Source: an uncultured Planctomycetia bacterium (GTDB taxonomy: Bacteria; Omnitrophota; Gorgyraeia; Duberdicusellales; 4484-171). From it: a DNA stretch of 64,000 nt. Made by a program: the position numbers and the translations under genes. Every line of letters begins with the position of its first letter. The stretch's first letter is position 1. The notes beneath the pieces are model-generated. The model was not told the origin of the DNA, did not search any database, and worked only from the letters and a program-made list of their open reading frames with translations. This document shows, piece after piece, positions 18,116 through 48,259 of the stretch. The DNA lies in the NCBI GenBank assembly GCA_964629655.1, contig CAZVQU010000002.1, positions 76,643 to 140,642 of the forward strand, read 5' to 3'.

Positions 18116-19447
18116 GTGGGGGAAAAAGGGGAAATGAAAATTTTATCTAAGATGCTTCTGGTTACCCTAATCGGACTTACCCTGATAGCTGGCTGCGCAG
18201 CTGGAAAGCCTAAAGAAGACAAATTGGTTATTTGGCATTGGATGACTGATAGAAGAGATGCTTTTGCTGAATTAGCCCAAAAATATACCCAGGAAAGCGG
18301 ACTAAAGGTAGAGTTTAGGCTCTTCTTTCCTCCGGAGATATACTCCCAGAAAGTAATCGCTGCTGCCCGGGCAAAGACCCTTCCCGATATATTTGGAATC
18401 TTGGGTGAAAGAAAAACCTTATCGTCTTTTATTAAGGCTGGGTACATCTTAAACCTTTCCCCTTACATGAAGGAAAAAATAGACAGCCGGAGAGAGACCA
18501 CTATAAAGTGGAAAGATAATTTTTATCCTCAAACCTTAAAAATAGTTACTTTTCACGAAAACAATACCTATGGTGTTAACGCGGGTATCTACGGAGTCCC
18601 GATTGACACTACAATTATGCAATTTGTTTACAATAAAACCTTATTCGAGGAAGCTGGCCTGGACCCTGAAAAAAGCCCTAAAACAGTGGCTGAATTTATA
18701 TCTTTAGCCCAAACCATAAGAGAGAAATCCTCTGTAGCCGGATTTATCTGCGGATGGGGAGAGGGTTGGCTGCTTAATGCCCTGGCTACTGAATGGGCAA
18801 TAAATTCTATGGGTGAAGATAAATTCTTGAAAACCATTGAAGGGAAAATATCATACACTGATCCCGATTGGATAGATGTTTTCGCCTTATTTGCCAAGCT
18901 AAAGGATTCAGGAATTCTATCTCCTAATATTGCAACAATGACCAACAAAGAAGCCGAGGCAGCTTTTGCTAGAGGCAAAGCAGCTTTTTCCTTTAATGGT
19001 AGTTGGTCAGTAAATGTCTATAGACAACTCTCTGAAGACTTAGATTATGCTTTTTTCTCTCTACCCAAAATATCTAGTGATCATCCGGTAAAAGTATGGG
19101 GTGGAGCAGGTTCTTCTTTTATGGTTGATCCTAATTCTCTTAAAAAAGACCAAGCCGTAAAATTTTTAAAGTGGCTTAGCGCAAAAGAACAGCAGGAATT
19201 CTTGGCTAAAGAAACCAACAACTTACCGGCGATTAAGGATGTTGTCGAGAAATTACCGCCAATACTTAAAAATTTACTCCCTACCTTCGAAAACCTGACT
19301 CATCCTGACATCTGGCCAAAGAACGAGGATTCTCGGGTTATTGAAATTATGAACAGGGGCTTGCAACAAATCGTCATGGACCTAAAGACTCCCGAGGAAG
19401 TTGCTCAGGAAATACAGCTAAAAAAAGAAAAGGTATCACGCAGATGA
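18116..19447 (+). CDS. Carbohydrate ABC transporter substrate-binding lipoprotein (family 1)
   Basis: LIAGCAAG lipobox and an extracellular solute-binding family-1 pattern. ~443 aa. Confidence 0.7.
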   Translation: MGEKGEMKILSKMLLVTLIGLTLIAGCAAGKPKEDKLVIWHWMTDRRDAFAELAQKYTQESGLKVEFRLFFPPEIYSQKVIAAARAKTLPDIFGILGERKTLSSFIKAGYILNLSPYMKEKIDSRRETTIKWKDNFYPQTLKIVTFHENNTYGVNAGIYGVPIDTTIMQFVYNKTLFEEAGLDPEKSPKTVAEFISLAQTIREKSSVAGFICGWGEGWLLNALATEWAINSMGEDKFLKTIEGKISYTDPDWIDVFALFAKLKDSGILSPNIATMTNKEAEAAFARGKAAFSFNGSWSVNVYRQLSEDLDYAFFSLPKISSDHPVKVWGGAGSSFMVDPNSLKKDQAVKFLKWLSAKEQQEFLAKETNNLPAIKDVVEKLPPILKNLLPTFENLTHPDIWPKNEDSRVIEIMNRGLQQIVMDLKTPEEVAQEIQLKKEKVSRR

Positions 19448-20352
19448 ATACGACTTTAAAAGATAAGGCGGCAAATTTCTCATTCATCTTACCGGCTCTG
19501 GTTATTTTCTCACTCTTCTACATTTACCCCTTCTTCTATAGCTTTATCTTAAGCTTAACCAATTATAATATAATCGGTGAATTCAGCTTTCAGGAATCTT
19601 TTGTCGGTCTAAGGAACTTTCAAGATATCGCCAGTGACAATGACTGGTGGAAATCAATGTATAACGGTGCTTTTATCACCTTCTGGGCTCTATCGTTTCA
19701 AAATGTCTTAGCTTTCATGCTGGCCTTAGCAGTAAGCCGAGTAATAAGGATGAATAAGTTTTATCGAGTTATATTCTTTATTCTTCCGGTTCTCTCGGAA
19801 ATTGTTATCGGCCTGCTTTTGCGACGGCTTATGCTTTCTGAGCCTACCGGACGCGATGTCTTAAACCACTTAGTTAATAACCTTGGTTTAGGCTTCCTGG
19901 CTCAAGATTGGATCAGCGGAGAAAGGGTGCGTCTGATTACGGCCTTAGTTCATTGCTGGAAGGGATTTGGCTGGGCTTTTGTAATTTTCCTAGCCGGATT
20001 ACAAAGCATACCTGAACAATTATATGAAGCAGCCAGAATTGATGGTGCAAATGCCTGGCAAAGTTTTCGTAAGATAACCTTGCCGCTTCTCATGCCGGTT
20101 ATTACTTTAATTATGGTCCTTACGATTCTCGGGACTATGTCAGCCTTTGCTATGATTCTGGCTTTAAATCAAGGGGCCGGAGGAGAGACTACAGTTCCAA
20201 TAATGATGATCTATAATCATCTGGGAACCGGCTTAGCCGGATTAGCCTGCGCTGAAGGCTTGGTTCTAGGAGTGGTTCTTATGGCAATATCATTTACAAT
20301 GTTCTTTGTTTCCAAGAAAATAAGGAAAAAATACGGTGTATTACCAGACTAA
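19444..20352 (+). CDS. Sugar ABC transporter permease (MalF/UgpA-like)
   Basis: Six TM helices and EAA-loop region EAARIDGANAWQSFRKITLP. Confidence 0.75.
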   Translation: MNTTLKDKAANFSFILPALVIFSLFYIYPFFYSFILSLTNYNIIGEFSFQESFVGLRNFQDIASDNDWWKSMYNGAFITFWALSFQNVLAFMLALAVSRVIRMNKFYRVIFFILPVLSEIVIGLLLRRLMLSEPTGRDVLNHLVNNLGLGFLAQDWISGERVRLITALVHCWKGFGWAFVIFLAGLQSIPEQLYEAARIDGANAWQSFRKITLPLLMPVITLIMVLTILGTMSAFAMILALNQGAGGETTVPIMMIYNHLGTGLAGLACAEGLVLGVVLMAISFTMFFVSKKIRKKYGVLPD

Positions 20353-21172
20353 AAAAATAGTTACTTTAATAATTCTCCATACCTTTTTATTAAGTATAGC
20401 TCTAAGCTGTATCTTCCCGTTCTTCTGGATGATAAATGCCTCATTTAAGAGTAACGCTGAGTTTAACAGCGACTACGGCTTAAAGCCGGCTTCTAGCCTC
20501 ATCTTAGACAATTACAAAGAGGTTGTTGTTGAGAGCGGGTTTTGGCGCTATTTTTTAAATAGCGTTCTCTACACTTTTACCACAGTCCTTTTAATTGTAT
20601 TTGTCTCATCCTTAGCTGCTTATTCTTTCTCGCGGTTGCAATTTCCCGGGAAAAATATTATATTTTATATGTTCTTGGCAGCAATGATGATACCTCTTCC
20701 GGCTGGTTTTGTTCCGGTCTATGTATTGTTGCAACAGCTAGGGCTCTTAAACCGAACCGGTTATGTTCTGGCCATGAGCAATATGGGCCTATCAATAAGC
20801 ATCTACCTCTTAAAGACCTTCTTCGACCAGCTACCTCGAGATCTAGAGGATGCAGCCAGGATTGATGGCTGCAATAAACTACAGACCTGGTGGAATGTGG
20901 GAATGCCCCTGGTTACCCCGGCTCTGGGAGTAGTTGTGATTTTTAATGCTTTGAATGTATGGAATGAGTTTGTTTTAGCCTCGATTATCTTTGTAAATAA
21001 AAAATATATGCCCTTGCAAGCTGCTCTTCTGCAGTATTCCGGTGAGCAAGTAACTAATCATGTTCTGGTTATGACTGCCTTAACCGTTACGGCTCTGCCG
21101 ATAATTGTCCTCTACGTTCTGATGCAGAAACAATTTGTTAAAGGGATAACCGCAGGAGCAATGGTAGGATGA
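20336..21172 (+). CDS. Sugar ABC transporter permease (MalG/UgpE-like)
   Basis: EAA-loop EDAARIDGCNKLQTWWNVGMP. Confidence 0.75.
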   Translation: MYYQTKKIVTLIILHTFLLSIALSCIFPFFWMINASFKSNAEFNSDYGLKPASSLILDNYKEVVVESGFWRYFLNSVLYTFTTVLLIVFVSSLAAYSFSRLQFPGKNIIFYMFLAAMMIPLPAGFVPVYVLLQQLGLLNRTGYVLAMSNMGLSISIYLLKTFFDQLPRDLEDAARIDGCNKLQTWWNVGMPLVTPALGVVVIFNALNVWNEFVLASIIFVNKKYMPLQAALLQYSGEQVTNHVLVMTALTVTALPIIVLYVLMQKQFVKGITAGAMVG

Positions 21173-23457
21173 GAAAAAAATTTAAGTTAATATTGTTCTT
21201 CAGTCTTTGTTTTCTATTTTCATCACTTAGTCTCTATGCCAAAGACAGTTCTTCTGATTATGTAAACAAGGCCTGGGCTCGTTTAGGAAAAAGAGAGTTT
21301 AGTGATGTCCATACTCTGGTTGATCAGTGTATTGAAGAATACTCTTCTCTGGCCCAAGATCAAGCCAGGACTTTGGGAAGCTTTCCGACCAAAGGTGAAG
21401 AAGATAACTTCAAGATTATGAATGATGTTGCAACCTGTTACTTTATTAAAGGCGAGTCTTTAATGCGCGAAGGAAAAACCGAAGAAGCAAAAGCTATTTT
21501 TGGGGAAGTTATTGATAAATACCCTTATGCTCAAAGTTTTGACCCTCGAGGATGGTATTGGTCAATAAAAGAAAAATCTGAAATAACCCTAAAAAAACTT
21601 GAAACCGGCCGGGTAGAGGAAGAGGAAGACGAGGAGGAAGGCGTAATAAGTAAGATTAAGCTCTATGATGCTGGAGGAGAATTTCCGGTTAATTATGACC
21701 GTTATGGAAAGTTTCAAAATGTCAGTGAGGAGAATTATAAGTACGTTGTTATAAATCCCGTTGAGTTAGCCAAGGCAACCGGGGAAGGAATTTATCCTAA
21801 TTCTACTTCAGTTAAGTTTGACCCGGAATTTGCTAAGGTTAAAAAAACATTATTCAAGATTGACCACTGGAAGATTGCCAATAGCCGGGATTTAAGCACT
21901 GCTTTTTATAAATGGCACATAACTCCTGAGTCAGAAGCATTAAAGCAATTCATGCGGGCTGATTTGCTAGAGCGAAGCGGCCTGATTAAACATGCGATTA
22001 AGGGTTACTATGCGGTTCTGGTTCATTTTCCACGCAGTTATGGCTGGACCTATTGGCATACTCCCTGGTATGTTGGCAAGGCTGCGCTATATCGATTAAA
22101 GTATCTCTTGCGCAATAACCCTCAATTCGACCTTACTCTTGAGGGCGGAGAAATCAAAATAATTAATGGTTACGACAATGACGTCCGCAATGATATTTTC
22201 CTGGTAAACCCTGGAAAACTAAGGCCCCTTACTTTTTGGGAGAAAAAATTTGCTTTTGGTGGTGGTTGCGGCAAGAAGAAAAGGAATTTGGAAAAAGTCG
22301 TTGAGACCAAGGGAGAAAAGGTAAAATTAGTCAAATATGATAGCGGAGATTGGCAATTATTAGTGGATGATGAGCCGTTTATGATTAAGGGAATGACCTA
22401 CGGGCCAACCCGGGTAGGTGAATCCCCTGATGACGGGACTATGCAGGATTGGACCACCCAGGACCTAAATAAAAACTCTATCATTGACTCACCCTATGAA
22501 AGTTGGGTTGATAAAGACCGAAATAGCCAACAAAATAAAGGTGAAATCGCTGTTGGCGACTTCCAATTAATGAAGGAAATGGGGGTGAACACCCTAAGGC
22601 TCTATCACCAGCCGTTTAAATTAAATAAAGAAATTCTTCGACAAATGTACCAAAAATATGGTATATATATACTAATGGGCGATTTCCTTGGAAAGTACGC
22701 CCTGGGGAGTGGAGCAGACTGGCAAGAGGGTACTGATTACGATAACCTTGAGCATCAAGAGAATATGCTCAAAAGCGTAGAAAAGATGGTTCAGGAATTC
22801 AAAGATGAACCATATGTCCTTATCTGGCTGCTGGGTAATGAAAATGTCTACGGATTAGGGTGTAACGCTGATAAAAATCCAGAAAGTTTCTTTAAATTTG
22901 CTAACAAGGCAGCCAAGCGAATTAAATCTCTGGATCCCCAAAAAAGACCGGTTGCTATTGCTTCCGGAGATGTGCTCTATCTAGACATATTCGCCAAAAA
23001 TTGTCCGGATATAGATATTTTTGGAGCTAATTGCTATCGGGGAAGATATGGGTTTCTAGATTTTTGGGATGAGGTAAAGAGAGTAGCTGATAAGCCAGCA
23101 ATGATTACTGAGTATGGCACTTCTTCCTATGCTAAGGGTTACTCTCAAGAAGAATCCGAAAACTATCAAGCTCAGTATCATAAAGAATGCTGGGCAGATA
23201 TTCTTTGCAATTCTTCAGGTTTTAGTGCTGGTAACGCTTTAGGAAGTGTTGTCTTTGAATGGCTAGATGAGTGGTGGAAAGCTTATGAACCTGCCTACCA
23301 TGACAAAAAAGGAGTGGCAGCTGGTCCTTTCTTAGATGGATATTACCACGAAGAGTGGTTTGGGGTATGCGGACAAGGAGATGGTATGAATTCTCCTTAC
23401 TTAAGAGAGCTTAAACCTGCTTACTTCATATACAGGGAGTTGTGGAGTCAAAACTAA
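21169..23457 (+). CDS. Secreted protein with GH2-like (clan GH-A) TIM-barrel domain
   Basis: Signal peptide. The C-terminal half has WLLGNENVYG (LacZ WSLGNE-like acid/base) and ITEYGTSSY (candidate nucleophile). Paralogous to 24712..25989. Confidence 0.5.
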   Translation: MRKKFKLILFFSLCFLFSSLSLYAKDSSSDYVNKAWARLGKREFSDVHTLVDQCIEEYSSLAQDQARTLGSFPTKGEEDNFKIMNDVATCYFIKGESLMREGKTEEAKAIFGEVIDKYPYAQSFDPRGWYWSIKEKSEITLKKLETGRVEEEEDEEEGVISKIKLYDAGGEFPVNYDRYGKFQNVSEENYKYVVINPVELAKATGEGIYPNSTSVKFDPEFAKVKKTLFKIDHWKIANSRDLSTAFYKWHITPESEALKQFMRADLLERSGLIKHAIKGYYAVLVHFPRSYGWTYWHTPWYVGKAALYRLKYLLRNNPQFDLTLEGGEIKIINGYDNDVRNDIFLVNPGKLRPLTFWEKKFAFGGGCGKKKRNLEKVVETKGEKVKLVKYDSGDWQLLVDDEPFMIKGMTYGPTRVGESPDDGTMQDWTTQDLNKNSIIDSPYESWVDKDRNSQQNKGEIAVGDFQLMKEMGVNTLRLYHQPFKLNKEILRQMYQKYGIYILMGDFLGKYALGSGADWQEGTDYDNLEHQENMLKSVEKMVQEFKDEPYVLIWLLGNENVYGLGCNADKNPESFFKFANKAAKRIKSLDPQKRPVAIASGDVLYLDIFAKNCPDIDIFGANCYRGRYGFLDFWDEVKRVADKPAMITEYGTSSYAKGYSQEESENYQAQYHKECWADILCNSSGFSAGNALGSVVFEWLDEWWKAYEPAYHDKKGVAAGPFLDGYYHEEWFGVCGQGDGMNSPYLRELKPAYFIYRELWSQN

Positions 23458-23494
23458 TATGAACTTGCGTAAAAAGCAAAACAAAGGAGGCAAA

Positions 23495-24673
23495 ATGCGT
23501 AAAGTACTTCTAACTATGGTTTGTTGGGCATTTATTTGCACAACAGCTTTAAATGGTTTCTGTGAAAAGCCGGAAAAAGATTTTTATGTCTATAGTGACA
23601 TGAACTCGCCGCTTAATCACTTCATACCAAGTGGTTGGATGGGAGATCATAATGACATAAGGTTCAATGGGCAAGCAACCGATGAGGTAGCTGCCGGAGC
23701 AACCTCAATTAAGCTAGTCTACACTGCTAAAGGTTCTCAAGGCAATAAGTGGGCTGGGATTTACTGGCAATCTGCACAAAATAACTGGGGCAGCAGAGAA
23801 AGCGGCTATGACTTAAGTGACTTTAATAAATTATTGTTTAAAGCCAAAGGCGCCCAAGGCGGAGAGGTTATAACAGAGATCAATATCGGTGGTATAACGA
23901 CTAACCCCGTTACCGGAGAACCAGTGGCTTTTCCAGACAGTCTTGAAGTTAAATCCGGTCCGATAAGACTAACTAACAAATGGCAGGAATATTCGGTTAA
24001 TTTAGCCGATAAAGACCTCTCTTACGTTAACGGTGGATTAGCGATAGTCTTTAACACTGCTCATGCCGGGGGAGAACAAACAGTCTACTTAGATGATATT
24101 CGCTACACTAAGGAAGAAGGATTGCAGAAAGAGAAAAAGGGAGTAAACCTACCTTTTTATGTTTACGCTGACAGTGTCTCTCTAGATAACCATTATGTTG
24201 CTAGTGGCTGGATGCCAGCAACTGCATCTAAGGATCTAGAATTGAATACTGGTTGGCAAAACTACCCCTTCAGCGGCAATACTTGTATCCGGGTAGGTTA
24301 CAGGAATCTTTCCGGGACTCGTTGGGCCGGAATCTTCTGGCAAAACCCGGCAAATAACTGGGGAACCATACCTAATGCCGGTTTTGATTTACAAGGAGCA
24401 AATAAGCTTACCTTCTGGGCCAGAGGAGACAAAGGAGGAGAGCTAATAACTGAATTTAAAATGGGTGGGCTTGCTAGCGGAGAATACTTTGATTCAGATA
24501 GCGCAAGTATTAGTCAGACTCAATTGACTAAAGAGTGGAAAAAGTACGAGATCGACCTAAGAGGCAGAGATCTCTCTTATGTAATTGGCGGTTTTTGTTG
24601 GTCTACAAGCATTGATGTAAATGATCCTGAAGGTATTGTATTCTACCTTGATGAGATTAAATACGAGAAGTAG
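23495..24673 (+). CDS. Secreted tandem-repeat protein (putative carbohydrate-binding module x2)
   Basis: Two ~190-aa internal repeats (WAGIYWQSAQNNWG...DLSDFNKLLFKAKGAQGGE and WAGIFWQNPANNWG...DLQGANKLTFWARGDKGGE). AAAGGAGG RBS. Signal peptide. Confidence 0.45.
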   Translation: MRKVLLTMVCWAFICTTALNGFCEKPEKDFYVYSDMNSPLNHFIPSGWMGDHNDIRFNGQATDEVAAGATSIKLVYTAKGSQGNKWAGIYWQSAQNNWGSRESGYDLSDFNKLLFKAKGAQGGEVITEINIGGITTNPVTGEPVAFPDSLEVKSGPIRLTNKWQEYSVNLADKDLSYVNGGLAIVFNTAHAGGEQTVYLDDIRYTKEEGLQKEKKGVNLPFYVYADSVSLDNHYVASGWMPATASKDLELNTGWQNYPFSGNTCIRVGYRNLSGTRWAGIFWQNPANNWGTIPNAGFDLQGANKLTFWARGDKGGELITEFKMGGLASGEYFDSDSASISQTQLTKEWKKYEIDLRGRDLSYVIGGFCWSTSIDVNDPEGIVFYLDEIKYEK

Positions 24674-24711
24674 GATTCCAACCAAACCTTAAAAATTGAC
24701 CTGCAATAGTT

Positions 24712-25989
24712 ATGAAGAAAGCTATAGGAATTTTCTGTATCTTGGGGACTATATTTTGCCTCGTAATTACTAACCTATCCGCGGCAGCCCCTGTAGGGAC
24801 GGCTTCGCCAAAACCAATTGAAATAAAACCTACCGAAGAGGGTGGGTACTTACTCTACGTAAATAAAAAACCCTTCCTGATAAAAGGTATCGGCTATAGT
24901 CCTACCCCGATAGGTAAAGGTTATGACTATGACTTATTCTCTGATCCTAACAAACCTTGGCTTGTCGATGGCAAACTAATGAAAAAAGCCAGGATAAATT
25001 GCGTAAGGATATATTCACCGGGAAAAGACCTGGAAAAAACAAGAGAGTTTATAAGAGACATGTACAAGAAGTACGGTATCTACACTATTATGAGCGATTG
25101 GTTAGGCTTATGGGATTATCCCCGGGCGAATTATTCTGACCAAGCTTTCAAAGACATGACAATGAGCAGAATTCTAAAAGTAGTTGAAGCCTTAAAAGAC
25201 GAGAAAGGACTTCTTCTATGGATTCTTGGCAATGAGAATAATTATACCTTCTCAGGTAAAATCGGTTTTTGGACTTCTAAGGAAATAGAAAAAATAGAGG
25301 AACCGCGCCAAAAACAAAAAAGAAGGGCTGAAATCTACTACACCTTTGTTAATGACCTGGCAAAAGAAATTAAAAAGATTGACCCGGTTCATCCGGTAAC
25401 CCTGGGAAACGGCGAGGACGGTTTCCTGACGGTTGCTTCAGGCATCTGTAAAGATATCGACGCTCTATCAATAATTATCTATCGCGGGAAAAGATTTGGC
25501 AATCTCTTTAATAATATCCGAAACTCCTTTGATAAGCCAATCTTACTGTCAGAATTCGGCTGTGACTCTTACAATGCTCATAAAGATTTTGAAGATCAGG
25601 AGATTCAAAGTGAATTCCTGCTAGCGCAATGGGAAGACCTCTACAGCAATACTGCTTTTAGCGGGATAAAAAATGGTAATGCCATAGGTGGAGTGTCTTT
25701 TGAATGGAGCGATGAGTGGTGGAAGTACAATGAGAGCTATGAAGAAGGCTGGCCTATCCACAATAAAGAAGCTACCTGGTCTCACGGAGCCTATTTCTAT
25801 GATATAAGAGCTAAGGATAACCTCAATATGAATGAAGAGTGGTTCGGAATTGTTAGTTTATCCGAACAAATTGTTAATGGCTTAAATAAAAGGTTGCCTA
25901 AAAAATCGTACTATGCTTTATCCAAGTATCTGCCTACTTTGAGATTCGGCTCTCTACGCAGGGCCAAAAAGAAAAGGCTAAGAAGATAA
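24712..25989 (+). CDS. GH2-like (clan GH-A) TIM-barrel protein, paralog
   Basis: WILGNENNYT, LSEFGCDSY and FEWSDEWWKY parallel the motifs of 21169..23457. Signal peptide. Confidence 0.5.
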   Translation: MKKAIGIFCILGTIFCLVITNLSAAAPVGTASPKPIEIKPTEEGGYLLYVNKKPFLIKGIGYSPTPIGKGYDYDLFSDPNKPWLVDGKLMKKARINCVRIYSPGKDLEKTREFIRDMYKKYGIYTIMSDWLGLWDYPRANYSDQAFKDMTMSRILKVVEALKDEKGLLLWILGNENNYTFSGKIGFWTSKEIEKIEEPRQKQKRRAEIYYTFVNDLAKEIKKIDPVHPVTLGNGEDGFLTVASGICKDIDALSIIIYRGKRFGNLFNNIRNSFDKPILLSEFGCDSYNAHKDFEDQEIQSEFLLAQWEDLYSNTAFSGIKNGNAIGGVSFEWSDEWWKYNESYEEGWPIHNKEATWSHGAYFYDIRAKDNLNMNEEWFGIVSLSEQIVNGLNKRLPKKSYYALSKYLPTLRFGSLRRAKKKRLRR

Positions 25990-26077
25990 AATAGACCCTC
26001 CTTTTTTTCCTTAAGATACACTTTAAATTCCTAAATAAATCTTTTCTATACATTCCTAATTTGGTATAATATTATTG

Positions 26078-26719
26078 ATGAGAAATTATTGGGGTTTGGC
26101 CTTAAGCCTATCTTTCCTCTTTCATACCGCTATCCTTACCGGAATTCCTCAACGTGTTGAGAAAGCTTTCTCTAAAAAAGACAAAATGGCTAAGGCTGAG
26201 AAAACAAAGGAAATTAGGATATCTCCTCAACGAATAGAGAAGATAAACAGAAAACCTCTGGTTAATCCAGCTGGCCCCAAGCCTCTGCCTTATGTTGAAA
26301 ACATTATGAGTAAATTAATACAAAGTAATAATTTTTCACCTCTGCAAAAACCGCAAATTTTTGAAAAAGACGTAAAGGAAATAGTTTTTAAAGAGATCCC
26401 TGAGAAGGTCGATAAAATTTTAAAAAAGAATCCAGCTTATATGGGCTACTACCGTTTAATTCGGGAGAGAATCAGGAATAGTGCCTTTCTTAACTACAGT
26501 AGCCAAAAAAGAGGCGAAGTCTTATTGAGCTTCCTCATTGGCAAAGATGGCTCTCTAGAGGAAGTCGATCTTGACCCCCAATCAGTAAAAAATAGGAATT
26601 TAAGGGGAATTGCCCTAAGGAGTGTCCGGGAATCTGCCCCTTTTCCTGAATTTCCCGAAGGATTACAGCAATATACCCGCCTTCAATTTAATATCTCTAT
26701 ATACTTCAAGAATAACTGA
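26078..26719 (+). CDS. TonB-family protein (possibly leaderless mRNA)
   Basis: N-terminal anchor and a C-terminal TonB-like domain (GEVLLSFLIGKDGSLEEVDL). Extended -10 TGGTATAAT at 26062-26070 leaves ~7 nt to the ATG. Confidence 0.55.
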   Translation: MRNYWGLALSLSFLFHTAILTGIPQRVEKAFSKKDKMAKAEKTKEIRISPQRIEKINRKPLVNPAGPKPLPYVENIMSKLIQSNNFSPLQKPQIFEKDVKEIVFKEIPEKVDKILKKNPAYMGYYRLIRERIRNSAFLNYSSQKRGEVLLSFLIGKDGSLEEVDLDPQSVKNRNLRGIALRSVRESAPFPEFPEGLQQYTRLQFNISIYFKNN

Positions 26720-26785
26720 TCTGTTTAGACCGGGTTTAAACAAATACTATGTTTTTTCGCTTTCTCGTTTTTTTTCATAAATGGG

Positions 26786-26814
26786 TTGACATTTCAAGGT
26801 AAATATAGTATATA
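26786..26814 (+). promoter_or_regulatory. Sigma70-like promoter (TTGACA-17-TATATA)
   Basis: -35 at 26786-26791 and -10 at 26809-26814. About 95 nt upstream of the 1180-aa ORF. Confidence 0.5.
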
Positions 26815-26826
26815 TTCCTTTAGGGA

Positions 26827-26874
26827 GGCGACAGAGATTCTGTGTAGACAGGGTCTAAATGTCGTCTTTTTTTT
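26827..26874 (+). terminator. Leader hairpin plus U8 tract (candidate attenuator)
   Basis: GGCGACA...UGUCGUC 7-bp stem enclosing sub-hairpins, followed by TTTTTTTT at 26867-26874. It sits between the promoter and the RBS. Confidence 0.45.
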
Positions 26875-26884
26875 ATTGGATAAA

Positions 26885-26900
26885 CTGAAAACGTTTTCAG
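26885..26900 (+). promoter_or_regulatory. Perfect 16-bp palindrome CTGAAAACGTTTTCAG overlapping the RBS
   Basis: Exact inverted repeat. Its 3' arm abuts AGGAGG of the giant gene. Candidate operator or RBS-sequestering hairpin. Confidence 0.45.
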
Positions 26901-26910
26901 GAGGAGAAAA

Positions 26911-29900
26911 ATGCTTAGCAAAATCAATAACTTTTTCAAATCAATCATCTGCTTGTTAACCTTAGTATCATTCCTAGGCACAACCACTATTACGACCTAT
27001 GCTCAGAGCCTAAGATTACCCGCTCCTAACCAGTTTATACCTTTATCTAATACCTACTCCTTGCCGATCTTAAAAGGTATAAAGATTAACCCTGAAAACC
27101 CCTTTGATGTAGAGTTTATAATCGATTCGGCTGATACGGATCAGATAAAAAAGGAAGAGGCAACCCGCCTTATAATGTACTTCCTGGCGGCATTAACCAT
27201 CCCTAAGGAAGATATCTGGGTCAACCTATCCCCCTATGAACAAGACAGAGTTGTCTCGGGCAACCTTGCCTTAACTGATTTAGGAAAAGATCTTCTAAGT
27301 CAAGACTACGTCTTAAAACAACTAACAGCATCTGTTACTTATCCTGAAAGTAAAGTTGGGGCTGATTTCTGGGCCAAGACCTACAAAGAAGTCTTAGAAG
27401 TGGCCCGAACTACTAATTTGCCAATTAATACCTTTAATAAGATCTGGATAATGCCGGATAAATCTGAGGTCTATGAGAACGGTAACCTCGGGTTCATCAC
27501 CAAAGCAAGCTTAAAGGTAATGCTCGAAGAAGACTATCTGGCAATGAATAATGCTAAAGATCAAAACCAAGGCCTAAGGGGAAATAGCCAAGCTCTGGCC
27601 AAGAAGATAAATGAAGCATCATCGAAGATAATGCGTCAGGTAGTATTACCTAAGATAAACCAAGATGTAAACAATGGTAAGAATTTCGCCACATTGCGTC
27701 AGGTTTATAATTCGATTGTTCTAGGTTTATGGTTTAAAGAGAAGTTCAAAGAGAGTGCCTATAAGCACTATATCAATCAAAATAAAATCAAAGGAATCGA
27801 CATAAAAGATAAGCAAGCCATAGAGAAAATCTATACCCAATATGTAGAAGCCTTTAAACAAGGTCTCTATGACTACATAAAACCAACTTATGACCCTGGT
27901 TCAAGGAAAATGCTAAAGAGAAGATACTACTCCGGAGGGTTTACCCTGGCCAGTAGCACTATTTCAACTAGGAAAACATTGCCCCAGGGTGTTCATTCCT
28001 TAGCCGAATTAGTTTCAGGAAGACCCTTTAAAGTGAACGGTAAAACCCTAGTTGAAACAGTTGAAAACATATGGAGTGAAGTAGATGCATCGAAGAGTCA
28101 ATCTCCTAAAGCCGGCAGTTCGAGCGCGATTAGCATAAATGACTTAAAAATTGCTGTAAATGAACAAAGACTCTTCTATTCACTTAGTGATAATAGAAAA
28201 TTCCCTCGGAATTCTCACGGTCGAGAAGCATTCTATGCGGCTGTTTTAGGTGACGTTGGGAAAAAAGTAGTGGTAACAGGTAAAGGGCTTGAAGTCGAGA
28301 TGGCCAAAGGGGATAGATTCAAAAGATTTCTTGAGAAAGAATCCTATAGCGTTGGTGATATTGGGGTAGAGAAAATCTATCAAGGAGAAGATAACTTTTT
28401 CCAGATGGGATACAAAATCGATGGTCAAGAACTATTGCTTACCTTTAAGAGAAGCACAAACCCTGAAACTGACGGATACTCTGTTCTAGTGCAACCAAGA
28501 ATGAGAATCATCATCAATGGTTATGGAGTTATTGGTAAGAAAGTAGCAGATCTATTGAGGAAGTCAGGTTATGAAATAATCGCTGCAGTAAATACTGGTC
28601 GATTAAGTGCTGATGGAAAAGCTAAACAGCTAACTCATGATGCGATATATAAAGGTTATCCGTTATTTACCGCTTTCGGTGCGGAGAAGTACTTAACCAG
28701 TGCTCGGGAAGCATACTTACCCTACCAAGGAAGCATAACAGACCTTCTAGAGCAATTAAGGAAAGATGGCAAAACTGCTATTGTTGTAGATGCTTCAACT
28801 GGTGGCAAAGGAGATAAAGAAACAAGAACAGGTTGGTTGAATCGAGAACAGCTTTACAAGCCGTATGATGACGTAATTAAAGCAGTTGTATATCAAGGGG
28901 GCGAAAGCCCAGAGGTTGCTGATGCCGCTTTTTCTCTTGATACTGCTGATTGGAGTGAGCTCAATGGCCTTTTTGGAGTACAGATTGTCTCCTGTAATAC
29001 TACCGGGATGAATCGTACCTATAGTGCGCTGAGACAAGCCTTGCTGGAAGCGGGTATTGATGCAAAGATCGTTATTGATAACAATGCACTTAGAAGAGAA
29101 GGGGATCCCGGTGCTGAGAAACCTGGAAAAACAGATGAGGTTCAGCTTAACGGTAGCAATACGGCTTTGTCGAAACAAATCGAAACGTCTTTGAATATAG
29201 GGGGAGCTAATGTTGATACTGTAACGACGTCGGCCAAAGGATTTTATGTCCATATAGCTACTTTAAGAAGTGATCTTAGCATAGAGGAGTTAAAAGAAAG
29301 GCTTTTCTCAGATAGGGCCGCGTACTTGGAGAGGCTAGATCAAGACATTCCAATTTCCCATATTCAAATAATCCAGGATAAGAGTTCAAAATTCGAAACA
29401 TCAAACTTATACAAGCAGGTATTTGAATCGAGTTCTCATTCTCCTGAGGAAGTTATGGTAGTTAACGTAATGCCTTCTGATATCCCGGGAGAAATAAAGG
29501 TAGTCTTTGGTTATTCCATGGATATAAAAGTGCCCAATAAAACAGATCCAGCAGTCTATGGAATAAATGCACTTTTCGCCCCGCTTAGAAATAGGCTTGA
29601 TGTATACCTTGATAACTTAGCATACATTCCTGGAGGGAATTTGGGCAGTCAGTTGGGAGGGATCTCGGTTGTTCCTAAATATCACCATGGAGACGACCTC
29701 AAACAAACCTTTAGAGATGTAGATAGTGCTGTTTTAGGAGCTGTAAATACACCGGCTTCTATGGTTCCAAGCACTCACTATCATGTTCATGTTGCAACGA
29801 TAAAAAGCAAAGGATTAACTGCCCCGATGGTAAGGGGAGCTTTAAAACAACACTCTCGCATGGCACTAGTAGATTTTCCGAATGGTATTTTTTCAAGCGC

Positions 29901-30453
29901 ACTGTTGTTTGAGGTAATCAACTCCGGGATAGGTGAAGAGGTAATCGGTGGTTCGCATCCCATGGTAATCATTTCCCAGGTAAAAGAGTCTCATATTCCA
30001 GGAGAAATAAAGGTTATCTATGCTGTTCCGCAAGAATCCGATGTAGTACCAGAAAACGCTAATGCTGTTCATGCTATCTTAGGAACATTCTCTAAGGGAG
30101 AATCGCGTAGAATAGTTGATGAAATATTACAACTGGATAGGATTAAACAGGGAATCGAAGTAAGGCTTCCAGTTGTAGAAAACTTGATAGTAACCTCCGG
30201 CGAGACGAAGAAAGCCCAAACAGCAGCAAGTTCGGGGATAAATTCAGAAGCTTCCCGCACGATAACGGAGAAGGCTTCAAGGCCATGGCAAACAGGTGGT
30301 ATTGACCTACAAAGCACAGTGGCAAAAACAGCACCGGGTTCAACAAGTTTAAGTTTTAACCTAACTGACTTTGATTTAGCTAATTTTAGCGGTCTCAAAT
30401 TCAAAGTTACTAAGGTCGAACAGATAACCGTTGGAGAGCTAGACAGTTTCTAA
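26911..30453 (+). CDS. 1180-aa signal-peptide protein containing an archaeal-type (type II) GAPDH domain plus a second partial catalytic-domain copy
   Basis: Residues ~531-700 read IIINGYGVIGKKVAD ... VYQGGESPEVADAAFSLD ... VQIVSCNTTGMNRT (archaeal GAPDH SCNTT catalytic motif, Cys codon 28993-28995). Downstream segments VPKYHHGDD, HYHVHVATIK and IPGEIKVIYAVPQESDVVPEN repeat archaeal-GAPDH C-domain motifs a second time. The N-terminal ~500 aa have no recognisable domain. Confidence 0.6.
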   Translation: MLSKINNFFKSIICLLTLVSFLGTTTITTYAQSLRLPAPNQFIPLSNTYSLPILKGIKINPENPFDVEFIIDSADTDQIKKEEATRLIMYFLAALTIPKEDIWVNLSPYEQDRVVSGNLALTDLGKDLLSQDYVLKQLTASVTYPESKVGADFWAKTYKEVLEVARTTNLPINTFNKIWIMPDKSEVYENGNLGFITKASLKVMLEEDYLAMNNAKDQNQGLRGNSQALAKKINEASSKIMRQVVLPKINQDVNNGKNFATLRQVYNSIVLGLWFKEKFKESAYKHYINQNKIKGIDIKDKQAIEKIYTQYVEAFKQGLYDYIKPTYDPGSRKMLKRRYYSGGFTLASSTISTRKTLPQGVHSLAELVSGRPFKVNGKTLVETVENIWSEVDASKSQSPKAGSSSAISINDLKIAVNEQRLFYSLSDNRKFPRNSHGREAFYAAVLGDVGKKVVVTGKGLEVEMAKGDRFKRFLEKESYSVGDIGVEKIYQGEDNFFQMGYKIDGQELLLTFKRSTNPETDGYSVLVQPRMRIIINGYGVIGKKVADLLRKSGYEIIAAVNTGRLSADGKAKQLTHDAIYKGYPLFTAFGAEKYLTSAREAYLPYQGSITDLLEQLRKDGKTAIVVDASTGGKGDKETRTGWLNREQLYKPYDDVIKAVVYQGGESPEVADAAFSLDTADWSELNGLFGVQIVSCNTTGMNRTYSALRQALLEAGIDAKIVIDNNALRREGDPGAEKPGKTDEVQLNGSNTALSKQIETSLNIGGANVDTVTTSAKGFYVHIATLRSDLSIEELKERLFSDRAAYLERLDQDIPISHIQIIQDKSSKFETSNLYKQVFESSSHSPEEVMVVNVMPSDIPGEIKVVFGYSMDIKVPNKTDPAVYGINALFAPLRNRLDVYLDNLAYIPGGNLGSQLGGISVVPKYHHGDDLKQTFRDVDSAVLGAVNTPASMVPSTHYHVHVATIKSKGLTAPMVRGALKQHSRMALVDFPNGIFSSALLFEVINSGIGEEVIGGSHPMVIISQVKESHIPGEIKVIYAVPQESDVVPENANAVHAILGTFSKGESRRIVDEILQLDRIKQGIEVRLPVVENLIVTSGETKKAQTAASSGINSEASRTITEKASRPWQTGGIDLQSTVAKTAPGSTSLSFNLTDFDLANFSGLKFKVTKVEQITVGELDSF

Positions 30454-30634
30454 GCTGCAACTAAACAAAAAGGGGAAGAAGTTCTTTCAATAAGGAACTA
30501 ATATAGAGACAGGAAGCAGTTCTTGCTCCCTAATCGCCTACCGCAGAGTATATTATAACCGCTATCTTATATGATTTAACCTACAGGGTTGACAGACTCC
30601 CTAATAATTGTTATCCTATTTAAAAATATCAAAA

Positions 30635-31465
30635 ATGGAAAGAGTTCCAGTTGTAAGCGGACAATTTTATCCAGAGGACCCTTCAGGTTTGAAGGTAATG
30701 ATTGAGGATTTTAGACCTCAGGGTTCCTTACCGCTACAGGAGTCTTCCAAGAAAATGTCAGCCAAGGGAATAGTCCTGCCCCATGCCGGCTATGTTTATT
30801 CCGGCCGGGTAGCAGTAAATACGATAAGTAAAATTTTACCTAAAAAGCGGCTACTGATACTAGGACCAAACCATACTGGCCGAGGATCCCAGTTTAGTCT
30901 TTGGTCCAAGGGCTCTTGGAAAATCCTTGATAAAGCAATTAAGATTGATCAAGAATTAGCTACGGCCATTTTAAGCAAAGGAAAAAATATAGACGAAGAT
31001 ACCTCGGCCCATACCTTAGAACATTCTATTGAGGTAGAGCTGCCGATTCTCGATTATTTTTTTAGTGATTTTAAGTTTGTGCCGATAGCTTGTCAAAGAG
31101 GAGCTATCCTTGACTACCAGGAGGCTGCTAAAGGGATCTTTGAGGCGATAAAAAGTTTAGGGAATTCGGAAGATATTCTTTTAGTTGCATCAACTGACCT
31201 TACCCACTATGAGAGCGACCAAGTAGCAAGAAAAAAGGATCGACGGGCAATAGAGACAATTATTGATTTAGACGAAGAAGAGTTAGTTAAACGGGTCCGG
31301 AAAGAAGACATAACCCTCTGCGGAGAAGCACCATTGGCAATATTTATCTCTTGTCTTAAAAGGCTCGGTGCCAGAAAATCTCAGGTAGCGCTATATCAAA
31401 CCAGCGGCGATGTTATTGGAGATAAAAGCGCAGTGGTAGGTTATGTCGGCATAATTGTTAACTAA
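30635..31465 (+). CDS. MEMO1-family protein (AmmeMemoRadiSam system protein B)
   Basis: PVVSGQFYP, PHAGYVYSG and LGPNHTG motifs. The ORF could start at 30608. Confidence 0.7.
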   Translation: MERVPVVSGQFYPEDPSGLKVMIEDFRPQGSLPLQESSKKMSAKGIVLPHAGYVYSGRVAVNTISKILPKKRLLILGPNHTGRGSQFSLWSKGSWKILDKAIKIDQELATAILSKGKNIDEDTSAHTLEHSIEVELPILDYFFSDFKFVPIACQRGAILDYQEAAKGIFEAIKSLGNSEDILLVASTDLTHYESDQVARKKDRRAIETIIDLDEEELVKRVRKEDITLCGEAPLAIFISCLKRLGARKSQVALYQTSGDVIGDKSAVVGYVGIIVN

Positions 31466-46782: not shown

Positions 46783-47868
46783 GTGAAAACGATAAGTGTT
46801 AAATTAAAAAAGAATCCTTACAAAATCCGCATTGGCTATAGACTTCTGAAAGAGGTTCCCAAATACATAAAAAGCCTTAAACTTGGCAATTTCGGCTTAG
46901 TTATTACCTCTCCGAAGATCCTCTCGCTCCACGGAAAGGGGATCAGAAGGGCTTTTGGTAGCAAAAACTATAAGATAACTACGGTTATCGACGGCGAAAA
47001 GGCTAAATCCAAAAAGTGGCTAAACAAAGTAATAAGCGAGGTAGTAAAGGCCGACGCCTTAAACCGAAAAATATTTATTATATGCCTTGGCGGAGGCACT
47101 ATCGGTGATTTAGGGGGTTTTGTAGCCTCGATCTACAAGCGCGGCATACCCTACATCCAGATTCCGACCACACTCCTGGGACAAATCGACTCTAGTATCG
47201 GCGGTAAAACTGCGATTGACCTAAAAGAGGCAAAAAATATCCTCGGCGCCTTTTACCAGCCTAAGGCTGTATTTATTGATCCCGGGTTCTTAAAAACCCT
47301 CTCAGTGAGAGAGATGAGACAAGGTTTAGCTGAAGCGATAAAGTATGGGGTAATAAAAGATAAAGAATTCTTTGATTTTCTCAAAAAAAATCATAAGAAA
47401 ATCTTAAAACTCGACTCAATCTGCATCTTAAAGTTGATTTCAGTCTGCACAGGCATAAAAGCAAAGATAGTAGCTGCAGATGAGCGAGAAAAAAGGGGAT
47501 TGCGGACAATTCTTAACTTTGGACACACTCTTGCTCATGCTTTAGAAAGTTCTCTGCAATATAAGCGGTTATCTCACGGAGAAGCAGTTTCTTTGGGAAT
47601 GCTTTACGCAGCTCACCTTTCAAAAGTTCTCAAAAAATGCTCTGAGGAAGAAGTTAACCAGATAGAGGAAATCCTCAAGCTGTTTTTCCTTCCAATCAAG
47701 GTAAAGTTTAGAGTTCTAACTCTTTATAAGTCATTGACTTATGACAAGAAGTTTGTTTCAGGAAAAATCCGAATGGTAATCTTACGAAAAATCGGAAGAG
47801 TAGAGGTAGTTGAAGGAATTTCTCCCCAAAATATCAAAAGAACCCTTAAACTTTTCGCCTCACGTTGA
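46783..47868 (+). CDS. aroB: 3-dehydroquinate synthase
   Basis: LGGGTIGDLGGFVAS and a metal-binding His cluster. Confidence 0.85.
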   Translation: MKTISVKLKKNPYKIRIGYRLLKEVPKYIKSLKLGNFGLVITSPKILSLHGKGIRRAFGSKNYKITTVIDGEKAKSKKWLNKVISEVVKADALNRKIFIICLGGGTIGDLGGFVASIYKRGIPYIQIPTTLLGQIDSSIGGKTAIDLKEAKNILGAFYQPKAVFIDPGFLKTLSVREMRQGLAEAIKYGVIKDKEFFDFLKKNHKKILKLDSICILKLISVCTGIKAKIVAADEREKRGLRTILNFGHTLAHALESSLQYKRLSHGEAVSLGMLYAAHLSKVLKKCSEEEVNQIEEILKLFFLPIKVKFRVLTLYKSLTYDKKFVSGKIRMVILRKIGRVEVVEGISPQNIKRTLKLFASR

Positions 47869-47929
47869 CAAAGACATATATATATGTTATATTCTAATGT
47901 ACCGTCCGAATGTAAACGTTTTAAAAAAT

Positions 47930-48259
47930 ATGAGTGATAAGAGAAAATTTCCTAGAGTAGATGTTTCGTTTCCGATTGAATACAAGCCACTTCCGGCCCG
48001 AAATTATTTTTACACTGTAAGTAAAGATTTAAGTCTTGGCGGAGTAAAGATTGTAAGCAATTATTTTCTGCCTAAAAACGATACCGTGAAGGTAAACGTA
48101 AACCTTATTGACAGCATACTGGGCCTGAAGGCAAAAGTAGCTTGGTGCAACAAGGAAAGGCTATCAGAAAGGTATTCTACCGGACTAGAATTCGTAGAAA
48201 CTACCGAGAGTTCCAAAAAGCGTTTATTCCAATTTCTAAACCGAATATTCAACGTCTAA
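47930..48259 (+). CDS. PilZ-domain protein
   Basis: RKFPRV plus a downstream D/S...G c-di-GMP motif. The ORF track starts earlier, at 47810. Confidence 0.6.
   Translation: MSDKRKFPRVDVSFPIEYKPLPARNYFYTVSKDLSLGGVKIVSNYFLPKNDTVKVNVNLIDSILGLKAKVAWCNKERLSERYSTGLEFVETTESSKKRLFQFLNRIFNV

Follow-up and report, generated by a model that had tools for sequence, protein, structure and literature searches.

The window analysed here is a 64,000-nucleotide stretch of contig CAZVQU010000002.1 from an uncultured Omnitrophota bacterium. It carries a gene for a 1,180-residue protein in which a signal peptide and a domain typical of this phylum (here called the N-domain) are fused to a region that resembles glyceraldehyde-3-phosphate dehydrogenase (GAPDH). 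The sequence directly upstream is read as the 5′ control region of an N-domain family member, composed of a promoter, a leader terminator and a phylum-wide operator, with expression by read-through; confidence in this composite reading is slightly better than even. The parts are of known kinds, namely a promoter, a terminator-like hairpin, an operator that resembles a catabolite-responsive element (cre) and a Shine-Dalgarno (SD) sequence, and what is new is the regulon in an uncultured phylum. The pairing of terminator and operator is possibly new as well. The leader yields a candidate cis-element for Omnitrophota, AAGAAA(A/G)CG(T/C)TTTC, and a promoter grammar that consists of a TATACT -10, an operator near -61.5 and frequent leaderless starts. 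It also yields a defined regulon, in which a signal peptide and the N-domain are fused to enzymes that are normally cytoplasmic (GAPDH, PGK, enolase, PGM, TIM).

An earlier, sequence-only reading had pointed out a near-consensus promoter, a compound hairpin with a 7-bp stem and eight U residues in the form of a terminator, and a perfect 16-bp palindrome that runs into AGGAGG. All of them are present where that reading had placed them (Table 1). A full-length ortholog of the gene is found in one other lineage (80% identity, with matching gene order on both sides) and is referred to below as the ortholog; more distant loci of the N-domain family carry L numbers.

Table 1. Coordinates of the control elements and of the gene they precede.
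Feature	Position in window	Strand	Remarks
-35 hexamer TTGACA	26786..26791	+	identical in ortholog; TTGATT at equal distance in L009
-10 hexamer TATATA	26809..26814	+	17-nt spacer from -35; GTATATAT conserved in ortholog
Compound leader hairpin, motif GGGAGGCGACA	26822..26866	+	fold and compensatory changes in ortholog
U8 tract, terminator-like tail	26867..26874	+	U7 in ortholog, U8 in L005, U6 in L009
16-bp perfect palindrome CTGAAAACGTTTTCAG, core GAAAACGTTTTC at 26887-26898	26885..26900	.	read as cre-like, LacI-type operator
SD sequence AGGAGG	26899..26904	+	6 nt before ATG 26911; conserved in ortholog; p(unpaired) 0.13-0.84 along the six bases
Regulated gene, 1,180 aa	26911..30453	+	signal peptide, N-domain (~aa 1-350), linker, archaeal type II GAPDH-like region, C-terminal region with GGIDL

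The palindrome is best read as a DNA operator and not as an RNA hairpin, judging by its distribution across the phylum. Loci were fetched with the N-domain alignment, 80 from species genomes of the Genome Taxonomy Database and 80 more from metagenomes as an independent set. With at most one mismatch, the core GAAAACGTTTTC is found in the 400 nt ahead of the N-domain gene at 13 of the 80 first-set loci, a density 33 times that elsewhere. When up to two mismatches are allowed and the central CG is required, the non-coding DNA ahead of the first-set N-domain genes (14.7 kb) holds 24 sites, the other intergenic DNA of these loci (20.1 kb) holds none, and coding DNA has 0.038 per kb. The metagenome set replicates the enrichment (0.54 per kb upstream versus 0.03 per kb elsewhere). 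In the two sets together, 62 kb of upstream DNA contain 41 sites and the 805 kb elsewhere contain 28 (odds ratio 19, p 3e-29); a site precedes the N-domain gene in 39 of the 159 loci. If the CG is not required, it is nevertheless kept in 41 of 47 upstream matches versus 28 of 74 elsewhere. The sites share the family consensus AAGAAA(A/G)CG(T/C)TTTC(T/C)(T/C) and, by sequence and by their placement ahead of one set of genes, look like operators of the LacI-family or cre type.

The sequence-only reading had left two roles for the palindrome, the site of a dimeric regulator or a hairpin that sequesters the ribosome-binding site (RBS), and had proposed to look for it elsewhere in the genome as a regulon marker. 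The marker does recur, across the phylum rather than within one genome, and its enrichment upstream of N-domain genes supports the regulator site. That the palindrome acts as an RNA hairpin hiding the RBS is extremely improbable. The window RNA can form a 6-bp stem, and the last two bases of the palindrome are the first two of AGGAGG, but this stem is worth only -3.3 kcal/mol and pairs two of the six SD bases. The ortholog RNA is predicted to be unstructured at this position. Window and ortholog differ at two positions of the 46-nt stretch 26868-26913, which runs from U tract to ATG (96% identity). One of these differences makes the ortholog palindrome imperfect (CTGAAAACGTTTGCAG); this substitution, the only one in the palindrome, breaks a pair and is uncompensated, which argues against an RBS hairpin and suits a DNA site in which one half can be weaker. 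At other loci 50-350 nt separate the motif from the start codon, and in most cases it stands upstream of the promoter. Its common variants GAAAGCGTTTTC and GAAAACGCTTTC are asymmetric and would not fold as RNA, which fits protein-DNA recognition and not RNA pairing. GGGAGGCG could also pair with the palindrome's right half (7 bp, three of them G-U), but such a pairing is weak and comes downstream of the termination decision, and it was set aside.

Inside the 64-kb window the palindrome is unique even with up to three mismatches allowed, and there is no second N-domain gene. Relaxed matches to the core all lie in coding DNA, save a degenerate one at 47910-47925. In the surrounding region (47865-47932) a second promoter in the style of the one ahead of the fusion gene, TTGACA, 17 nt and a TATATT containing ATATGTTATATT, overlaps the stop codon of aroB. 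The degenerate cre-like palindrome TGTAAACGTTTTAA (47911-47924) follows 18 nt after it, and a PilZ-domain gene then begins at a probable ATG (47930). The palindrome here could be due to chance or could bind the same regulator weakly.

The phylum-wide sites fall into two positional classes. The upstream class comprises 23 of the 41 sites. Here the core is followed after 41-44 nt (mostly 42 or 43) by the start of a -10-like hexamer, in most cases TATACT, so that the dyad is centred near -61.5, where upstream activators classically bind. In about nine genes of this class the start codon follows only 6-11 nt after the -10, so that their mRNAs appear to be leaderless. The grammar of operator core, 42-43 nt and TATACT, often with a preceding TG and with no -35 that is clear by eye, is seen in L017, L020, L032, L054, L058, L074, L083, L099, L122, L127, L129, L138, L161 and others. 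In the downstream class the core lies 3-19 nt after a box of the form TG(C/T)TAT(C/A)TT or TGGTATA(A/C)T, over or just past the start (for example in L013, L041, L050, L056, L076, L088, L101 and L103). L101 is a close analog of the window: its TTGACA, extended -10, 19 nt, palindrome, 22 nt and ATG reproduce the window layout minus the hairpin.

The two classes also seem to differ in the enzymes that are fused to the N-domain. Downstream sites precede fusions to PGK (L013), enolase (L041), PGM (L056), type I GAPDH (L005), malate synthase (L103) and an HMGL-like domain (L088, taken from the precomputed Pfam list for protein P0067), as well as the type II GAPDH fusion of the window. The roughly 22 genes with a site at -61.5 that were checked showed only HATPase_c, HEAT, GNAT or HTH repeats or no Pfam domain, and a central-carbon domain was seen in none of them. 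Among complete or annotated first-set proteins, central-carbon cargo is found in 5 of 6 of the downstream class versus 0 of 6, but annotated proteins are few and many are cut at the locus edge, and the rule is therefore treated as a lead. A shared regulator with opposite site geometry for each class of cargo would give a handle on the purpose of the family and would narrow the search for the regulator.

Three leaders, in L013, L041 and L088, additionally carry a conserved element UUAAUUGCCRCGG (UUAAUUCGCCACGG in L041) about 8-11 nt upstream of the RBS. It occurs in PGK, enolase and HMGL-like fusions of Aceula-like genomes.

Upstream of the window gene, the promoter matches the sigma-70 type in its hexamers, in a spacing within 16-18 nt and in hexamer conservation over a drifting spacer. 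The pattern TTGACA-N16-18-TATA[AT]N occurs three times in 64 kb versus 0.3 expected. In the ortholog, both the -35 (TTGACAT) and the -10 (GTATATAT) are unchanged, while the spacer is much altered and 18 instead of 17 nt long; hexamers that are kept while their spacer drifts are the signature of a functional promoter. The ortholog -10 reads TGgTATATA and is thus an extended -10. The paralog L009 has TTGATT-17-TATATA in the same place, with the -10 context TGGTATATAT. The window hexamer TATATA lacks the usual final T, and an automated promoter scan of the window, which accepts only T as the sixth base of the -10, overlooked the promoter. Judged by where the -10 lies, transcription is predicted to start at about 26821-26823. 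A start inside the stem, by which the gene's own transcripts would escape termination, was rejected, as the start is predicted to lie ahead of GGCGACA.

The U tract and the ATG are separated by 36 nt into which no promoter fits, so that expression of the gene needs read-through of the hairpin. TAAACT at 26881-86 was rejected as a -10 by inspection (no -35, no TG extension), as was a leftward promoter 42 nt from the palindrome (CACAGA). A further promoter-like sequence, TTGACA, 17 nt and TATCCT with a TG extension (30589-30617), is located ahead of the next, Memo-like gene (30608-31465).

The hairpin that has to be read through is supported as a real, selected RNA structure with a U tract. In the outer stem, GGCGACA (26827-33) pairs with TGTCGTC (26860-66); the inner stem has 9 bp (26835-43 with 26848-56) and a GUAG loop. 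Folding of the leader, which the sequence-only reading had named as a check, gives a stable structure: -29.5 kcal/mol for the 96-nt leader (z = -4.05, none of 200 shuffles as stable) and -24.2 kcal/mol for the hairpin alone. The window and ortholog RNAs adopt the same compound hairpin. Three inner-stem pairs are changed on both sides in the ortholog (A-U to G-C, U-G to G-C and U-A to C-G), besides two one-sided changes and one broken pair, and in the outer stem one G-U is improved to G-C. Across the two RNAs 95.8% of cells are paired, versus 42-54% in controls with a slid partner, a comparison that rests on two distinct sequences only. The high identity from the U tract to the ATG can be set beside that of the upstream gene (67%), the N-domain coding sequence (87%) and the neighbouring intergenic DNA (25%).

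In sequence, this hairpin looks like an intrinsic terminator, with a stable G+C-rich stem and a U tract directly after it. In a survey of all runs of at least six T with a preceding hairpin, it was the sole strong intergenic terminator-like site of the 64 kb. It probably terminates or attenuates transcription. When the 211-nt intergenic RNAs of window and ortholog were folded, no competing antiterminator fold for the terminator arms was found, and the leader lacks the features of a riboswitch or of a classical attenuator with alternative folds; there is room for a protein-dependent mechanism. A leader peptide was rejected: its candidate reading frame, nine codons that begin at AUG 26859, is frame-shifted in the ortholog and missing from L005.

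Related leaders carry the same arrangement. In L005, whose N-domain is 60% identical, an extended -10 is followed by a hairpin from about +1 that contains GGGGAGGCGACA, by U8, by 12 nt ending in ATTGGCCT and by the core GAAAACGCTTAC. In L009 (N-domain 52% identical), TTGATT, 17 nt, TATATA and TAGGGAAGC precede a hairpin containing GGGGAGGCGA and U6, and an RBS with GTG follows 25 nt after the U6. The promoter, a hairpin with GGAGGCGA and U6-8 are thus a module common to L005 and L009. The genes upstream of it are unrelated to those upstream in the window, which indicates that the module belongs to the leader of the N-domain gene. Counting one further locus, hairpins with GG(A/T)GGCGA follow promoter-like boxes in L005, L009 and L087, and L155 has the close variant UGCCU-GGGG-AGGCA.

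The arms of these hairpins are not used uniformly. L005 (~2437-2475), L009 (~2820-2866), L087 and L155 have short GGGG-loop hairpins with AGGCGA in the 3′ arm (consensus YU-GGGG-AGGCGA; AGGCA in L155). The GGCGACA string of window and ortholog is a 5′ arm that pairs with a downstream partner, unlike the 3′-arm placement in the relatives. The five or six hairpin members differ in which arm carries the conserved motif. The GGA-containing loop recalls the binding sites of CsrA-type regulators.

A rival account takes the hairpin and U8 as the terminator of the upstream operon, with a promoter that is weak or irrelevant, a gene expressed from read-through and a palindrome that is still a regulator site. 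We regard this account as unlikely. The same-strand upstream gene ends 103 nt before the hairpin and carries after its stop a hairpin without an adjacent U tract; same-strand genes likewise end 70-110 nt upstream in L005 and L009, and in L033, L099, L122 and L129 the terminator of the upstream gene lies directly before the palindrome. Yet the promoter hexamers were kept while the spacer diverged, and the promoter-hairpin-GGAGGCGA module recurs beside non-homologous upstream genes and so travels with the N-domain gene. Moreover, a terminator located downstream of a promoter cannot insulate that promoter. A terminator of the upstream operon and a leader terminator do not exclude each other. The hairpin after the stop of the upstream gene (26722..26742, + strand) is small and A/U-rich; all nine of its pairs are kept in the ortholog, two of them via one-sided changes.

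The hairpin might instead be a stabilising or protein-binding stem-loop at the 5′ end, recognised for example by a regulator of GGGAGG or GGA, with the U-rich tract acting as a translational enhancer. Such a stem-loop would begin at the predicted +1, as the hairpin does in the window, L005 and L009, and the conserved (G)GGGAGGCGA exceeds what a terminator needs. The motif is located in or beside the GGGG loop in L005, L009, L087 and L155, of which L087 has both hairpin and motif but lacks a U run, and L155, with GGAGGCA, has U4 only. Against this, U6-U8 directly follow the stem in four leaders of three lineages, the stem adjoining the U tract has the high G+C content of functional terminators, the ortholog motif GGGTGG breaks GGAGG, and no RNA-binding regulator was identified. 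We consider the stem-loop account quite improbable. A stand-alone small RNA gene of about 53 nt, made up of promoter, hairpin and U8 and only incidentally linked to the downstream gene, is very unlikely. A strong-looking promoter with a terminator-shaped hairpin directly after it would suit such a gene, and the L005 module, which lies 330 nt ahead of the N-domain gene, looks like a unit of its own. But the loop and inner stem vary between the orthologs with no conserved single-stranded seed, the N-domain genes of the window and of L009 would be left without a promoter, and no Rfam match was obtained.

Set against these accounts, the favoured reading of a leader terminator and operator ahead of an N-domain gene can be put as a sequence of steps. 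A sigma-70-type promoter would start the mRNA at about 26822, and the first 45-50 nt of the transcript would form the conserved compound hairpin, followed by U8. Hairpin and U8 would most likely act as an intrinsic terminator within the leader. At this terminator, transcripts arriving from the sugar-utilisation operon upstream would end, and a share of those begun at the gene's own promoter would be stopped as well, an attenuation that would leave read-through as the only route to expression. A putative dimeric regulator would bind the operator 12 nt past the U tract. In the many family members with a site at about -61.5 it would have an activator-type role; at sites over or after the start, in PGK, enolase, PGM, malate synthase and GAPDH fusions, it would act as a repressor or roadblock.

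The window gene belongs to the downstream class, in which the bound regulator would block RNA polymerase just ahead of the RBS. A polymerase stalled at about 26871 would stand on the U tract with the hairpin just formed, which would favour release and reinforce termination. Such a roadblock would explain the conserved spacing: the 12 nt ahead of the core GAAAACGTTTTC read ATTGGATAAACT in the window, and the distance from U tract to core is 12 nt in window, ortholog and L005. As no antiterminator fold was found, regulated read-through would depend on operator occupancy or on an RNA-binding factor at the GGGAGGCGA motif. Which way the regulator acts, what it is and whether a roadblock is coupled to termination are inferences here, as are the start site and termination itself. 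The wider proposal that a single cre-like operator coordinates paralogous enzyme fusions across the phylum, and that its 12-nt placement turns a leaky terminator into a switch for a DNA-binding protein, is a speculative one that we hold to be rather unlikely. If true, the pairing of terminator and operator would be a simple natural design for protein-controlled attenuation.

Several observations weigh against the favoured reading, besides the narrow basis of the stem and cargo comparisons and the failure to find an antiterminator fold. Because the hairpin lies about 100 nt past a same-strand upstream gene in the window, and likewise in L005 and L009, it could in all three be the plain terminator of that gene. 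The L087 hairpin with GGAGGCGA and without a U run means that termination may not be the conserved function. At Rfam gathering thresholds only two tRNAs are found in the window, and a permissive scan of 26650-26960 gave chance-level matches only. The ortholog operator carries a G where this base occurs in none of the 41 sites, and the flanks of the window palindrome are CT and AG versus AA and TT in the family consensus. Finally, tblastn with LacI, PurR, CcpA and Cra found no homolog in the window and 163 loci (0.97 Mb of Omnitrophota genome fragments).

The resemblance to known systems is closest for CcpA and its cre sites. CcpA activates from sites upstream of a promoter and represses, or acts as a roadblock, from sites over or after the start. 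By sequence, the operator described here is indistinguishable from a CcpA cre or another LacI-family operator, and the regulator may belong to that family, a membership that likeness of this kind does not establish. The window's TGAAAACGTTTTCA falls inside the cre consensus that RegPrecise gives for S. thermophilus, ATGAAAACGTTTTCAA (PMC6090898), and the family consensus AAGAAAACGTTTTCT agrees with AAAGAAAACGTTTTCT, a site that CcpA occupies in vivo in group A Streptococcus (PMC8359418). The differences lie in the host, which belongs to Omnitrophota and not to Firmicutes and shows no LacI-family protein in the sampled DNA, in the upstream sites, which are very uniform at -61.5, and in the regulon, which consists of one paralogous family of signal-peptide fusions instead of general catabolic operons.

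Cra (FruR) also binds a palindromic LacI-type operator with a central CG, sets the direction of control by site position and targets glycolytic and gluconeogenic enzymes. The central-CG palindrome and the central-carbon fusions with a downstream-positioned site recall this system. Each half-site in the Cra operator (CTGAAnCGnTTCAG) is one base shorter than those found here, and the dichotomy of position and cargo in Omnitrophota rests on few annotated proteins.

For the terminator, the rplL-rpoB attenuator and rpsU-dnaG T1 of E. coli offer precedents, in which a leaky G+C-rich hairpin with a U tract is passed by read-through to express the downstream gene. Here, too, the hairpin and U tract appear to stand between a promoter and a gene reached by read-through only, with the differences that the hairpin begins at the predicted first transcribed base and that a protein operator follows 12 nt later. 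Roadblocks by bound repressors are known from CcpA at xyl and ara, PurR at purB, CodY, and EcoRI Q111 in vitro, and a roadblocked polymerase stalls about 14 bp before the edge of the bound protein. The operator of the window is likewise well downstream of the start, and the expected stall at about 26871 would fall inside the U tract. We know of no described system in which a natural roadblock is coupled to a leader terminator at a fixed spacing. The searchable papers on Omnitrophota make no mention of the N-domain family, the operator motif, promoters, terminators or gene regulation.

The product of the regulated gene begins with a signal-peptide-like segment, MLSKINNFFKSIICLLTLVSFLGTTTITTYA, and continues with the N-domain of about 340 residues. 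This domain has no Pfam match and is common to at least 2,810 database proteins, nearly all from Omnitrophota; each collection scan returned more than 580 loci of the family, and together the scans gave more than 1,100. Its AlphaFold model (pLDDT 74.4) gave no significant match in the PDB, the best being ClyA-family toxins (E ~0.1, TM-scores near 0.1). Family members share a layout in which a signal peptide or transmembrane segment and the N-domain precede variable cargo. This cargo includes TIM, FBP aldolase/phosphatase, PPDK, enolase, phosphoglycerate mutase, PGM, PGK and GAPDH, and further hexokinase with PGI, kinases, methyltransferases and HEAT repeats. In the window protein, the C-terminal half resembles archaeal type II GAPDH (PDB 2yyy, 2czc, 1b7g and 1cf2; E 3e-21 to 1e-16), while Pfam gives only a sub-threshold Gp_dh_N match.

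The GAPDH-like domain noticed in the sequence-only reading is thus present and belongs to the archaeal type II class. The premise that the gene encodes a housekeeping enzyme did not hold, as the domain is joined to a signal peptide and the Omnitrophota-specific N-domain. As the gene is not that of a housekeeping GAPDH, strong control is no longer odd in the sense meant there. In a preprint on complete Omnitrophota genomes, canonical GAPDH is reported for every genome of that set, alongside many membrane-anchored or secreted multi-enzyme proteins (bioRxiv 10.64898/2026.06.07.730766).

Some features of the fusions stand apart from the control region. L005 carries a bacterial type I GAPDH and the window an archaeal type II one (3860-5701 in L005 versus 28486-30453), and the C-terminal parts show no BLASTP similarity. 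This suggests that the cargo was swapped for an isofunctional enzyme between the two lineages while leader and N-domain stayed together. The Pfam order looks inverted in L005 (3860-5701; Gp_dh_C at 330-464 before Gp_dh_N at 540-599) and in L041 (3970-7032; Enolase_C at 586-900 before Enolase_N at 919-1012), which could be due to circular permutation or tandem copies. In L161 (3012-4985) the signal peptide and N-domain are followed by a long winged-helix/HTH-like array (HVO_A0114, DprA_WH, ArsR, TrmB-like), odd for an exported protein. The window protein and its relatives P0003 and P0004 share a similar C-terminal stretch (~55-73 aa), with GGIDL present in the window protein.

The window has a G+C content of 39.6%, and its genes lie almost all on the + strand; its best protein matches point to Omnitrophota. 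The immediate upstream gene (26075-26719, same strand) encodes a weakly TonB_C-like protein and closes a + strand cluster (18116-26719) that looks like a sugar-utilisation operon and is syntenic in the ortholog. The cluster contains a solute-binding protein, two ABC permeases, two TIM-barrel hydrolases resembling GH2/GH72, an open reading frame without Pfam match and the weakly TonB_C-like protein. On the other side, a conserved block of about 210 nt (86% identity) covers the end of the fusion gene and the next spacer, in which a minus-strand gene of 73 aa is called in the ortholog.

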